A DNA stretch of 61,201 bases, the filler included, from Perkinsus olseni (Eukaryota), in the NCBI GenBank assembly GCA_013115125.1. It is 4 parts of 4 records of this genome, joined end to end, with 100 filler letters (N's around TTAATTAATTAA, not from the genome) between each part and the next. Parts side by side here need not be neighbours in the genome. Positions count along the whole stretch, not along the records: positions 1 to 15,384 come from JABANN010000702.1; positions 15,485 to 30,706 come from JABANN010000703.1; positions 30,807 to 45,972 come from JABANN010000705.1; positions 46,073 to 61,201 come from JABANN010000706.1. One strand, given 5' to 3'. Shown piece after piece: positions 3,919-49,088 of this stretch. The position numbers and the translations under genes were made by a program. Each line of letters opens with the position of its first letter. Position 1 is the stretch's first letter. Below the pieces are notes generated by a model. That model saw nothing but the letters and a program-made list of their open reading frames with translations. It searched no databases and had not been told where the DNA came from.

Positions 3919-5950
3919 TTGTTGATGGGTCGCCGATCTCGTAGCGGCATTAATGTGACATTAATAATGTCTGGAAGCACGTGCATAAGGGTGATGATAT
4001 ATGTGTGTGCCGCCTCTGTGGGAAAGATGCACTTGAAGCTAACGCGACTCGCTGGGAGAAGCACTTGCGGGAGGATCACGCGGACGAGCTTGGCATTACT
4101 CCTTAGAAGAAGAAGAATATATATTCCCCGTATCTCGTCCAGCCAGTCCTCGGTGACGACGAGACCACCGGTATCCTGTCAGATCCCAAGCCCATCGAGG
4201 CCCCTCTTTCCACAAGACATGTCGTACCTTGTGCGCGCCGATGCTGAGAGGAGCGGTGATGAAGATGTCCGATCTCCTATCCCCCGGCAGGCAACGGTGG
4301 TTCTCTCTGATTCTCCTGAGCAACGAAGACTCTCCAAGTCAAAGCCGAGTTCTAATCCTCAGAGGTCGAGCGACGGTAAAGGTGGGAGAACACAAGCCGG
4401 CAGCTACCAGGTGTGGGCTCCTTTGATTCCGAAGAAAATGGCTATGTATTTCAATATGCGCTTCGTTGAAGTAGCCATGGCTATGGGTTGGAATCTCCAA
4501 ACTCTTCTCGACCCCGTGGTTTACCGTACCCTTGCGACTTTGCGTCCGAACATGCTCATCTTCAAGCCGGACTATGATGAACTGGATAGGCTGCAGAGGA
4601 AGGTCTTGGCCGAGACCTATGCCCGCCTCTCGCTTTATCTGACTGAATGCAGTAAGGTCTTCGTCATTATCGGTGCTCGGCCTATAGCACCATTGAGTAC
4701 GGAAGGTGATCGCTTTCGCTTCGTGTGCTGCCTGGCAAACCTCGAGGGGCGCCTCTTCCCGTGGAGGGGAAAGACCGTCAGGGTCTCTGACAACGACAAC
4801 CCCACTTCCGATATTCCGGCCCTCGTTGGGAAATTCTTCGTCGATGACTGCCTGCGTGGAATACAAGCATGTGAGTCATCCTTAGCTGCTGCTGGCGTTA
4901 GTGAATAAGCACTAGCTCGTCATTTCTCAGGCAATGTGAGAATCTTGGTGTTGTGGGCCTGCTCGGGCGAGGATCACAGCAGCTCTGCGCCCATCCAGTG
5001 AACATACCATCGATGTCCCGTGCTTTCGGTGGTGCCTAACACGCATTGTCACAAAGCTGTTCGGGAATGCGGGGCCAGCGGCATTATCTCGCCCAGGCGA
5101 ATTTCACGAGTGTTTGGCCACATATATGAAGCTGAGACAGTCAATTAATACGTTCAAGAGTACGGGCATTCAAGTGCCTAGCCCTCTAAAGAGGTGGAGA
5201 GAGCTCGAAAAGGACCATCCTTTCGGGTGCTTGGCAAGCATCAGAGATATGCTGGATAATTGGCGTGGGTATCCGAGGTTTCTGGGTACGCTCAGAGTGG
5301 ATCGTTGGCACGAGTAAGTGATGATGGCCGACTGTCTTTAGTTTAGTATGACTGAGTTCCTCAGTGTGTCGGCCCCAGTGCGTGCGTTACACGCTGATCT
5401 GGTATCCATCCTAGAAGACGCATCTCTGCAAGCCAGAATTCAGAAGGGATCCGAGGTCCTAGGATCCCTCTCCTCCCTGCTGAAGGACATCGTCGCTGAG
5501 GATTGCTGTCTATTGCTGTCTCTTGGTCGCGGTGCGCAAGGTTGAAGAACTCATCGGTAAATTCCGTGGCGACCCGGACCTCAGTCGTGAGACAAAAAAA
5601 AGATAATCGAATCGTAAGCAGAGCATCAGCCATTGAGTGGGTTTTACCCTGAAGTTTGGTCACCGAGCTAGCCTTTTTAGGTTGAAAACAATGCTCGGGC
5701 CTCACCGGTTGGCTGGCCTATTTGACCCAGCAAGGAGACTCTTGTGACGAGAGCGAATCCGAGCGGATCCATCAAGCAGGCTCTGGAGCTTGTCCGCTTG
5801 CATGGAAGCAAGCTGGATATAAGCGCTGATGACGTAGCCAAGCATGTGGTCGACGAGTGGTCTTCGGAAGGAAAGGTGAGTGATCAGCTTCATTGAGCTA
5901 GCAGCATCTCTTTTCGCCAGGCGAGCATTCCAAGATTCCGGCGACGCTGC
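3919..5950 (+). mobile_element. Degenerate element: ORF (4218-4908) followed by a fragmented putative tyrosine recombinase
   Basis: Long ORF without a recognisable family, then broken frames reading IAVYCCLLVAVRKVEEL (box I-like RxxE) and WSTSGLRKE (box II-like). Layout resembles 59991-61089. Confidence 0.3.
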
Positions 5951-7350
5951 CAGCCGAGAGCTACTGGGAGTTTTTTCAACGACGAGATAGTTTGGGACGC
6001 TACCTGTATCTCGCAGCAGCGACGCACAGTTGTGTCTCTCCAGCAGATTCCATCACATGGGACCTTGATGGTTGGGGGAGGTGATATTCACAGCATGGCA
6101 TCGCGCAGTGTGGCTGACGGACAGAATAAATCCTGGAAAATTTTCTATCGAAAATTTTCGACAGAAAGAAAAGAAAAATAAGAAAAAATAGAAGATCGCT
6201 CCAAACTCCGAGACTCCCGGATCGGGAGTTCAGCTCCCCGGGCAGCGGACTATCTTTAGTATAGAGCTTTGACCTATCAAGCTGTCGGAACTCACATCTT
6301 AGCTGTCAGACACATGATTTGTCACGCATTTGTAATATTTGAAGTTTTCGGGAAATCATTCAAGCAAGAACAGAATATTATTGGAAAAAGTCATGGCATC
6401 GACGCTAAAGGTGTAGCTGGGAGCTCCGCCGTACATAAGCCGGCTAGACCGCAATACGACGGCAGAAAAAAGCCATGAAAATACCCCAAATTCGCTCCAA
6501 AACAGCCATTTTTTCAATTTTTTCTTCGGGCGCGCGCTTTTCGCATTTGAACAGAAAAATAGATTCTGTTATTTGTTTGAAACCCGAACAGAAAGATGAA
6601 AATTTTCATTGTGTCAGCCACACTGGCATCGCGCTATTGGCAGAATTCGATTATAATAATAGATTTGATAGCTTAGCTATGGCAGCTAGCTCTATTATTA
6701 TGATTCATAATTCATGAAGCCAGTGCCTTACTCAGTGATGAAGACAGTGCCACATTCGAAGCTGTGATTGTCAAGTGGAAGCTCTCGCAACGGTCCGATG
6801 TATCCACCGAGCCGCCCGTTAAGGTGGGTGGAATCGCTCGCGGAGTGATTTCTGGACGTTTGTTTCGTTAGGACCAAGGCGACGGTACATGGGCCTTCTT
6901 CCGCTGGGCACCGTGGTTCGATTTTCCTGAACCCACTCCCGCGACAACGTCTTCGCGCAACCCTGCAGGCAGCTCAAGTGCTTCGTCTTCTCCGGCCCCT
7001 GAGGTGAGGGAGATGGTTGAAGTTGATGAAGTGTCAGAGACCGGTGCATCTTCCTCCGTCTCGAAGAACAATGCGGGTTGCAACGTAGACCCTCAGCACA
7101 TGCATGCGCAACTCACCCACAAGTTCTTGGCATTATTCCCCGATGGCGTCACCTGCAGTAACATGTATGAAGGTGAGTGGTATGGGGGGAAGATAATACC
7201 TTATCCGAGGAAGAAGAACTGCAAAGCCTACGAGATTCTAATAGAATCATTCTATATGATGACCTGAAGACTAAGAGTGACTACTATACGATTTATCAAC
7301 TTCGGAGTATGCTGAGGAAAGACGAGCTTAGGATTCCTGTATTGAGAACC

Positions 7351-7520
7351 TATTCTCGCGTTGGTGACCCTAGCTCGCCCGCTAAATTGCGCGATTCTGG
7401 TGATTAGTATTCTCACATTGGTGACTCTGGATGCCCACTAATTTGCACAGTTCTGGTAAGTAGTAATCTCGCGTTACTGACTCTAGCTCATCCGCTGATT
7501 CGCTTAATTCTGGTCGGTAG
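7351..7520. repeat. Three diverged tandem copies of a ~57-bp unit
   Basis: TA(T/A)TCTC.C.TT..TGAC.CT.G.....C.CT.A.T.GC....TTCTGGT...TAG units start at 7351, 7408 and 7464. Confidence 0.8.
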
Positions 7521-48021: not shown

Positions 48022-48645
48022 TCACTCGTCCCGGGGTACCAGCGCAACCTGACTGGCCACAGAGCCGTCTGACCAATGACCGATGTCGTATCCTTCCGAA
48101 GGAGCTAGGCCACTAATATCGACGTTAGTGTCGTTCGGGCACCTTCCTCTATCCAAGGTCATCAGTGTTCCGTTCAATATGAATGATACTCGTTGCAGAC
48201 GCCTGTTGAATACGATGACGTCAGCGTCTCCGTCATGGTATCTTAAGTCAACGTCGCAGCTCCGACACTCCAGCACCCAAGCCCTCAAGGCTTCCAGGCT
48301 CTTTGGAATCTCGTCGAGGGACCATGAGAAGTAAAGCCACGGTTGTTCCTCATCGAATTCTTGCCTCTTGAATTCGATCATGTCCGAGATTTCCTCAGAG
48401 GTTCCGAGATTATCACACTCCAAAGTGAATATACCGATCCATTCGGAGTCATTACGTGGTTGGGGAGGCTCCAACCAGTCCATTCCTATGCAGAGATCAG
48501 GGTTAGCTTGAAGTTGATGATGGTACGGACCTGATGGTCCCAGCGGGAGGGTGGCTGCGGACGAGTCCTCGAGGATCAGAATGCTTAACAACGCGACGAC
48601 AAACATCATCAGCGAACAAATCCTACTGTGGTTCGAGTTTGACAC
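48022..48645 (-). CDS. Secreted hypothetical protein
   Basis: 207-aa intronless ORF with a hydrophobic signal peptide (MMFVVALLSILILEDSSA) and several Cys. Confidence 0.65.
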   Translation of the reverse strand: MSNSNHSRICSLMMFVVALLSILILEDSSAATLPLGPSGPYHHQLQANPDLCIGMDWLEPPQPRNDSEWIGIFTLECDNLGTSEEISDMIEFKRQEFDEEQPWLYFSWSLDEIPKSLEALRAWVLECRSCDVDLRYHDGDADVIVFNRRLQRVSFILNGTLMTLDRGRCPNDTNVDISGLAPSEGYDIGHWSDGSVASQVALVPRDE

Positions 48646-49088
48646 TCAGACCCTGCCCGCTGCGAATCCTTTTCAAGGAAAACAACGAGAGACTGCGTCA
48701 GAGTCTAGTCGCTTGATCTCCGGTATGAATTCTATTCCAAAGTACAATTAGATGATGAGGTCCTGATAATATTTGGAGGTGGCAGTGCCAAAAGCGCTCG
48801 GTTCATAGTGTGCCACCGTGGCACACTATGAACTGAACGCTTTTGGTGTCTTATAGGGTTACGATGCAGCCTACGGCTGTTTTCTAAAAGCAGAATCATC
48901 TTACGGGAAGGAGAACAGCGCCGTTTGGACCGCTCGAAGACCTGGAATTCCGTTTCGTGCGCTAAGGACCTCCCTGTGCGCGCGAGTTGGCGTTGTCTTC
49001 CACCAGAATTCCGCCCGCCACACGGATACTTTCAACTCTACTCGTCTGTTAGCATTGTAAACGTCAATCCACCGGCGGTAAGTATGAA

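Follow-up and report, generated by a model that had tools for sequence, protein, structure and literature searches.

Excision of the transposon Hermes is said to begin with a nick one base into the flank and to leave a hairpin on the flanking DNA (work attributed to Zhou et al. in 2004). Ascot-1 of Ascobolus immersus and Tam3 of Antirrhinum, with target site duplications (TSDs) of 8 bp, reportedly leave long inverted duplications of the flank at the empty donor site, as ascribed to Colot et al. in 1998 and Coen et al. in 1986, respectively. At V(D)J coding joints, hairpin opening yields P nucleotides, and Artemis opens the hairpin a few bases from the tip. Here, we describe a population of 22-nt sequences, termed scars below, in a 61,201-nt stretch of DNA from the alveolate Perkinsus olseni (the window, meaning the whole of the DNA that was analyzed). 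Each scar has the form W[1-7]+rc(W)+W[2-8], where W is an 8-mer and rc its reverse complement, and we consider it likely that these sequences are the excision footprints of cut-and-paste transposons with 8-bp TSDs, most probably hAT-type non-autonomous elements. The window consists of four pieces (15384, 15222, 15166 and 15129 bases) joined by linkers of 44 N, TTAATTAATTAA and 44 N that carry stops in all six frames (15385–15484, 30707–30806 and 45973–46072), and feature spans are not to be read across the joints.

By these descriptions, the long palindromic footprints of Ascot-1 and Tam3 resemble the long forms found here, but they are diverse and come from single reporter loci. Hermes and V(D)J recombination share with our proposal the flank nick, the hairpin and the P nucleotides on opening; unlike in V(D)J recombination, opening here would have occurred 4 to ~29 nt from the tip, with joining mostly by 8-nt complementarity. 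For Ac/Ds in plants, Saccharomyces cerevisiae and Candida albicans, complement-centred P tracts, a flank hairpin and microhomology joining are described, as we propose here (PMC5873905, PMC1978519). According to these reports, the palindromic P-nucleotide tracts of hAT footprints each have the complement of the element-adjoining TSD base at their centre (PMC5873905), and the element is cut away at the nucleotide that flanks its 5′ side (PMC1978519). For C. albicans, 128 events fall into 28 footprint types and no P tract exceeds 3 nt; for yeast, arms of up to 20 nt are given (PMC5873905). Ac/Ds footprints are heterogeneous in these accounts and come from reporter assays, whereas the window holds a natural genome population in which footprints with the complete inverted TSD of 8 nt (+14 nt) predominate. 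Muta1, a MULE, likewise forms flank hairpins and 8-9-bp TSDs; its report, however, describes mostly precise repair and a variable TSD length and documents no one-base offset (PMC5499845).

Flank-hairpin chemistry and palindromic hAT footprints are already established. The uniform +14-nt scar and its density appear undescribed: full-text literature searches, judged mainly by titles and abstract openings, returned no genome-wide 22-nt scars, no uniform +14 footprint at ~1 per kb and no Perkinsus transposon footprints. The exact +14 product may have been recorded earlier in reporter assays or in supplementary footprint tables.

Length, density and geometry of the scars

The window was scanned for the general form W[1..k-1]+rc(W)+W[2..k] at k=3-14, with three block shuffles of the window as controls for k=8. 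At k=8, 25 exact scars were found; exact matches were absent at k=6, 7 and 9-14, and numbered 4 at k=5, 25 at k=4 and 298 at k=3. When up to 0, 1, 2 and 3 mismatches were allowed, k=8 gave 25, 48, 63 and 96 matches, compared with shuffle means of 0, 0, 0.67 and 3.67; k=9 and k=10 with up to two mismatches gave 2 and 1 matches, compared with 0.33 and 0 in shuffles. The non-overlapping set comprises 62 scars, of which 25 are exact, 22 have one mismatch and 15 have two; its density is 1.0 per kb, and it covers 2.2% of the bases other than N. All four pieces contain scars, with 21, 13, 25 and 3 in order. A preliminary description of this DNA had listed 12 exact 22-mers and five one-mismatch cases; all 12 have the form W[1-7]+rc(W)+W[2-8] at the positions given, each of the five has exactly one mismatch, and 13 further exact scars are added here. 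The k-scan against shuffles that it proposed returned a sharp peak, at k=8 only. The density measured here, ~1 per kb, is higher than its estimate of at least one scar per 3 kb.

The catalogue is based on the k=8 scan and assigns no strand to any scar or footprint. Exact scars lie at 3950–3971 (W=TTAATGTC), 7234–7255 (GATTCTAT), 8162–8183 (GTTCATAC), 10588–10609 (CCACTACG), 11964–11985 (ACCATGTC), 14453–14474 (TGGTGGCG), 15132–15153 (GTCAGAGG), 19227–19248 (CTCCCGCG), 21364–21385 (CTCCCCGA), 23759–23780 (ATGAATAC), 23918–23939 (CTCTAGTC), 27144–27165 (GCATCAGG), 28143–28164 (GCAACTAG), 31028–31049 (TCTCCGAG), 31130–31151 (GGTGGGAT), 31636–31657 (CACATGAA), 32049–32070 (ACAACAAC) and 32312–32333 (GGGAGCTG). 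Farther along, the scar at 33797–33818 (GATACTCG) stands 87 nt upstream of the start (33905) of an FAD-oxidase gene, and that at 36493–36514 (GTAAGGAC) lies within a compound footprint; the remaining exact scars are at 36869–36890 (CCAACGAT), 37826–37847 (GATCGAAC), 40951–40972 (ATCTACTT) and 41497–41518 (GTGGTCAG), the last two within a gypsy-type retrotransposon, and at 59081–59102 (TCTTGCTG).

Scars with one mismatch were found at 1292–1313, 2740–2761, 6697–6718, 7770–7791, 8765–8786, 11933–11954, 13338–13359, 20773–20794, 21055–21076, 23389–23410, 25530–25551, 28119–28140, 32004–32025, 32246–32267, 36063–36084, 36773–36794, 37428–37449, 37746–37767, 38597–38618, 38710–38731, 45070–45091 (in the integrase region of the retrotransposon, where it shifts the frame) and 58215–58236; those at 7770, 11933, 37428, 38710 and 45070 are the five cases of the preliminary description. 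Two mismatches are present at 120–141, 766–787 (G+C-rich, and the least certain of the set), 1263–1284, 1505–1526, 6207–6228 (within element A, see below), 7589–7610, 8126–8147, 22545–22566, 26945–26966, 31608–31629, 31907–31928, 35784–35805, 36586–36607, 37057–37078 and 51321–51342. The series of 25, 22 and 15 scars with zero, one and two mismatches suggests accumulation over a long period. Iterative in silico removal of the exact scars exposed no second layer of scars in the window. Six neighbouring pairs lie within 60 nt of each other, compared with 2.9 expected (P=0.066), and clustering was not significant. Two paralog pairs (2700–4100/9650–11100 and 57200–57560/58970–59350) are either too diverged for comparison or lose their homology at the scar.

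The constant two-centre geometry claimed earlier holds throughout, as all scars have single-base centres that are the complements of w8 and w1, the last and first bases of W. One-base-centred palindromes with arms of at least 6 nt numbered 144 in the window, compared with 9 in a shuffle, whereas even-centred palindromes with such arms numbered 23, compared with 18; only the one-base-centred form is therefore in excess, which matches the one-base offset of hAT cleavage. Among pairs of odd-palindrome centres up to 20 nt apart, 32 are spaced by exactly 7 nt, and no other spacing occurs more than twice. The flush form A+rc(A)+A had no exact occurrence in the window at arm lengths of 6-11. Exact footprints of the type W[1-7]...W[2-8] are dominated by the full form (n=25), and the distinct shorter P-tract classes reach at most 4 each, the best two with 4 each (compared with 0.6 and 1.0 in shuffles). 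Two further short P-nucleotide classes are at background (10 compared with 4.8, and 6 compared with 5.6), and sequences lacking any P tract, which are simple 7-nt tandem repeats, number 40, compared with 18.8. Short classical footprints, with P tracts summing to less than 8 nt, thus show little or no excess in the window.

A generalised scan was also run for two one-base-centred palindromes, up to 150 nt apart, whose outer 7-mers and centres imply one 8-mer W. With exact matching it returned the 25 canonical scars and seven long forms with centres 18-43 nt apart, and none of five shuffles gave a long form; with one mismatch allowed in W, there were 12 long forms with centres 17-47 nt apart, compared with a mean of 0.0 over 10 shuffle runs. 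The exact long forms are located at 10772–10824 (W=ATGAAGGT on both sides, centre distance 33 nt, arms 11 and 8), 25974–26045 (AAAGAGTT, 40 nt, arms 22, or 29 with two mismatches, and 9), 26051–26087 (GTCTGGAC, 22 nt, arms 4 and 4), 31202–31260 (CATTATTG, 43 nt, arms 6 and 8), 35710–35748 (GAGTAATG, 18 nt, arms 13 and 6), 37279–37320 (TTGACCAG, 23 nt, arms 9 and 9) and 48778–48846 (GGTGGCAC, 32 nt, arms 5 and 16, or 29 at 93%). Long forms whose copies of W differ by one mismatch include those at 2637–2698 (centre distance 47 nt), 33502–33558 (26 nt, arms 7 and 23) and 49286–49365 (43 nt, arms 5 and 10, or 29 at 97%), and a compound footprint with at least four alternating arms at 36486–36534 overlaps the exact scar at 36493. 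The inverted tracts of the long forms extend past W into the adjoining flank, the longest arms measuring 22-29 nt, and they therefore fit unfolded flank hairpins and not a fixed mini-insertion.

Two more one-base-centred palindromes were observed. That at 12238–12302 has arms of 28-32 nt and an imperfect downstream partner, and W[2-8] recurs 18 nt past its right arm; that at 9171–9227 has arms of 22-28 nt, lies inside element B (see below) and has no partner palindrome. Both are probably long-form footprints that were later mutated or deleted.

Empty and scarred states in independent contigs

Nine public runs from three studies contain the stretch, and X1, X4 and X9 denote one run from each study. 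Contigs from these three runs showed 0 differences from the scar-bearing stretches of the window (for example, 31554–32389, 36140–39697 and 30924–31279). The scar at 31636 is identical in contigs of X1, X4 and X9, those at 32049 and 32312 are identical in contigs of X1 and X4, and those at 31028 and 31130 are identical in an X9 contig. Absence of the scars from raw reads had been named in the preliminary description as the mark of a library or assembly artefact; they are present in contigs assembled from reads of three separate studies. Contigs of run X7 diverge from the window by many indels, with, for instance, 16 gaps over 31714–32362.

Differences in scar content were seen in a Ty3/gypsy-type retrotransposon at 40500–45972 on the plus strand, which encodes reverse transcriptase, RNase H and integrase and is cut by the linker at 45973. 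This element is multi-copy in the runs and has its relatives in Perkinsus, and at least three scars (40951, 41497 and 45070) fall within it; a pair of long terminal repeats was not found within its piece. One contig each from X1 and X4 carries 14 additional letters behind 40527, in this multi-copy region. The added letters form an exact scar on the 8-mer ACTACTAC, which is present in the window as a single copy. Moreover, the stretch 41334–41713, which holds the scar at 41497, is 14 letters longer in the window than in contigs of X1 and X7, and 11+2 letters at the scar at 40951 are missing in one X1 contig. The presence of a scar in another copy of the retrotransposon suggests that the process was still active after the family had spread.

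Protein comparisons gave a similar picture at 45070–45091. For the P. marinus polyproteins P0044 and P0045, the alignment breaks off at 45072 and starts again at 45090 in a different frame. A single residue separates the two segments, so that the scar puts 17 nt in place of 3, a difference of +14 nt. The P. olseni polyprotein P0042 also changes frame at this scar, its two alignments overlapping at 45087–45099. In silico removal of 14 nt extended the open frame from 468 to 768 codons at 45070 and from 116 to 269 codons at 41497. Most scars sit in sequence with no long open frames. Of the three states that the preliminary description had expected at a single site, the empty and scarred ones were thus observed, both between retrotransposon copies and in comparison with Perkinsus proteins, but a filled allele of a scarred site was not seen.

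Candidate source elements, proposed excision mechanism and alternatives

Two inverted-repeat elements with 8-bp TSDs were found in the window, compared with 0, 0 and 0 in shuffles, as the preliminary description had anticipated for the source of the scars. Filled site A (6098–6633) contains a 520-bp non-coding element (6106–6625) between 8-bp duplications of GCATCGCG; its terminal inverted repeats are a perfect 13 nt, start with CAGTG and give the ends CAG..CTG. Filled site B (9110–9490) contains a 365-bp element (9118–9482) between 8-bp duplications of GACTTCGG, and its 13-nt terminal inverted repeats have one mismatch and start with CATRG. Neither site has an assigned strand. Further copies of the terminal repeats of A and B occur in the window at chance level (11 compared with 6.1 expected, and 11 compared with 7.2). 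Ac-type hAT elements have the target consensus nTnnnnAn. Across the scars, position 2 of W is T in 27 of 63 cases (p=0.0013) and position 7 is A in 29 of 63 (p=9e-5); this weak and symmetric T2/A7 preference resembles that consensus.

Based on these data, we propose a putative mechanism for scar formation. Insertion of an element would duplicate W, the 8-bp TSD (w1..w8, with a prime for the complement). At excision, the transposase would nick one base into each flank, and the 3′-OH of the flank would attack the opposite strand to form closed flank hairpins, whose tips would be the complements of the TSD bases lost with the element. The left hairpin would read w1..w7-w8'-w7'..w1' and the right hairpin, on the other strand, w8'..w2'-w1-w2..w8. 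Host enzymes would then open the hairpins far from the tip, at 4 to ~29 nt, a range drawn from the arms of the long forms. Opening of both at least 8 nt from the tip, on the strand whose cleavage leaves 3′ tails, would produce tail ends of w8'..w1' and w1..w8 that could anneal over these 8 nt; trimming of the flaps, filling of two 7-nt gaps and ligation would yield W[1-7]+rc(W)+W[2-8], 14 nt more than at the empty site. The canonical scar is thus the product expected whenever both openings lie beyond 8 nt, and tails joined elsewhere would give longer footprints that retain both palindromes. The identity of the transposase superfamily, of the hairpin-opening enzyme and of the annealing route, which may be of a microhomology or single-strand-annealing type, is what we infer from these products.

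The reading of the scars as hAT-type excision footprints, first put forward in the preliminary description, is supported by the peak at k=8, the one-base centres, the long forms, the empty and scarred states and the T2/A7 preference. The superfamily call was made on the basis of the geometry, the strict 8-bp length and the target preference, and not on a transposase. Several observations weigh against this reading. The Pfam scan covered, whole or as start-trimmed open reading frames (ORFs), all of the 98 stop-to-stop frames of at least 110 amino acids except three antisense to the retrotransposon pol (44275–44742, 44565–44912 and 45167–45517), and no hAT transposase or dimerisation domain was found in the frames covered. 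The domains recovered were reverse transcriptase, RNase H, integrase, MULE, FAD oxidase, EF-hand and C2, the only DNA-transposase domain being the MULE at 53584–55203. The TSDs GCATCGCG and GACTTCGG do not fit T2/A7, and the duplication of element A can also be read as 10 bp, with the ends AG..CT. No site that is filled here and scarred or empty elsewhere was seen in the compared contigs. Removal of 14 nt restored a frame at 2 of the 62 scars, no more commonly than in controls (5 of 296). Additionally, the exact position of the 14-letter gaps across 41334–41713, by which they coincide with the scar at 41497, and the annealing step of the proposed mechanism are both inferred.

The scars might instead be footprints of a different superfamily that combines 8-bp TSDs with hairpins on the flanks, such as MULEs or Merlin- or Dada-like elements, and the absence of a hAT domain from the scanned frames, together with the MULE transposase domain at 53584–55203, would favor such a source. 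Muta1 produces 8-9-bp TSDs together with flank hairpins (PMC5499845), and Merlin-related ORFs, from a superfamily with TSDs of 8-9 bp, are present in P. marinus (PMC8101967). However, the TSDs of MULE and Merlin elements are variable in length (8-10 and 8-9 bp), yet no exact scar occurs in the window at k=9 or k=10, and those of Dada elements are given as 6-7 bp, yet exact scars are equally absent at k=6 and 7. Moreover, in the account of Muta1, excision is precise in more than 90% of cases and the flank hairpin is of 43+43 nt with no sign of a one-base offset (PMC5499845), whereas the one-base-centred geometry combined with T2/A7 is a hAT signature. We therefore regard a source of this kind as unlikely.

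Two explanations dispense with excision altogether. Template switching, that is, fold-back synthesis at short sequences during replication or repair, can make inverted duplications, and a transposase gene that would account for the scars was not detected in the window. Such switching should nevertheless produce a broad spectrum of lengths, and the observed unit is exactly 8, with nothing at k=6, 7 or 9-14; every centre is a single base, the complement of the one that was lost, the long forms keep one W on both sides, and the target preference of W is symmetric. We consider this route very improbable. An artefact of assembly, library preparation or sequencing could be suspected because the window is a concatenation of short contigs from a draft assembly. 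The scars show mutational decay, however, their copies differ in scar presence or absence, the scar at 45070 is a +14 frameshift relative to the proteins of other species, and contigs from the runs of three studies match with 0 differences, which leaves an artefact scarcely credible.

Surrounding features and implications

A gene for an FAD-linked (BBE-type) oxidase lies at 33905–35560 on the plus strand, 89% identical to a P. olseni protein and 70-72% identical to proteins of P. marinus and P. chesapeaki. Together with the relatives of the retrotransposon, these matches assign the window to a Perkinsus-like alveolate and not to a fungus. The oxidase gene has an in-frame stop at codon 34 (34004–34006), which may mark this copy as a pseudogene or be a polymorphism of the strain, or translation may start downstream of it. 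The MULE transposase ORF (53584–55203, minus strand), for which terminal repeats or a TSD were not found in the window, stands back to back with an ORF at 55206–56552 on the plus strand that contains six 24-nt tandem repeats (56063–56254). The latter ORF matches C-terminal extensions (residues 694-777 and 632-716) of the annotated FAD oxidases of P. marinus and P. chesapeaki, and the match, taken from sequence comparison, suggests fused gene models or a mobile domain.

A tRNA-Ser(GCT)/tRNA-Arg(ACG) pair occurs twice in opposite orientation (33061–33267 and 58977–59210), with arms 95% identical, and a degenerate third copy of the pair (57309–57527) and a tRNA-Arg-like fragment (51567–51629) are also present. 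The summed contig depth of run X1 at 32.8–33.3 kb is ~100 times that of neighbouring bins (17197 compared with ~160), pointing to a high-copy, tRNA-bearing repeat. Dada transposons that target tRNA genes are described in P. marinus (PMC3706591). At 60556–61089 on the plus strand, a weak tyrosine-recombinase match (Phage_integrase, E=0.0035, under the curated cut-off) could be a Crypton- or DIRS-like remnant. The region 1–2500 is G+C-rich (62%) with strong GC and AT skew, unlike the remaining window, and contains tandem repeats of 82 nt (2017–2180) and 194 nt (1333–1671).

Cut-and-paste excision usually leaves little genome-wide trace, and excision rates and the mutational load imposed by DNA transposons are poorly known. 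With a footprint that is 22 nt long, uniform and beyond statistical doubt, it becomes possible to count excisions, to date them by their decay, to map them against genes and to compare them between strains, and the genome can be treated as a countable fossil record of transposon excisions. A density of ~1 scar per kb, found across four unlinked contigs, implies that transposon traffic in a little-studied parasite mobilome has been very high and probably continues. Two of the scars frameshift the retrotransposon pol, which makes the process a real mutagen.

We tentatively speculate, with slightly less confidence than an even chance would warrant, that in this Perkinsus lineage hairpin breaks left by hAT-type elements are almost never opened near the tip for classical end joining but unfold and pair through the inverted 8-nt TSD, such that nearly every imprecise excision yields a +14-nt scar and a genome may hold 10^4-10^5 of them. 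If this is true, scars would make up ~2% of the DNA at one per kb, would be a dominant class of indel and would provide a datable census of excisions. The repair genes would also be unusual, with weak or absent hairpin opening of the Ku/Lig4/Artemis type and repair that relies on cleavage of the Mre11 type together with microhomology or single-strand annealing. The uniform repair outcome offers a natural read-out of how hairpin-capped double-strand breaks are repaired in an alveolate.

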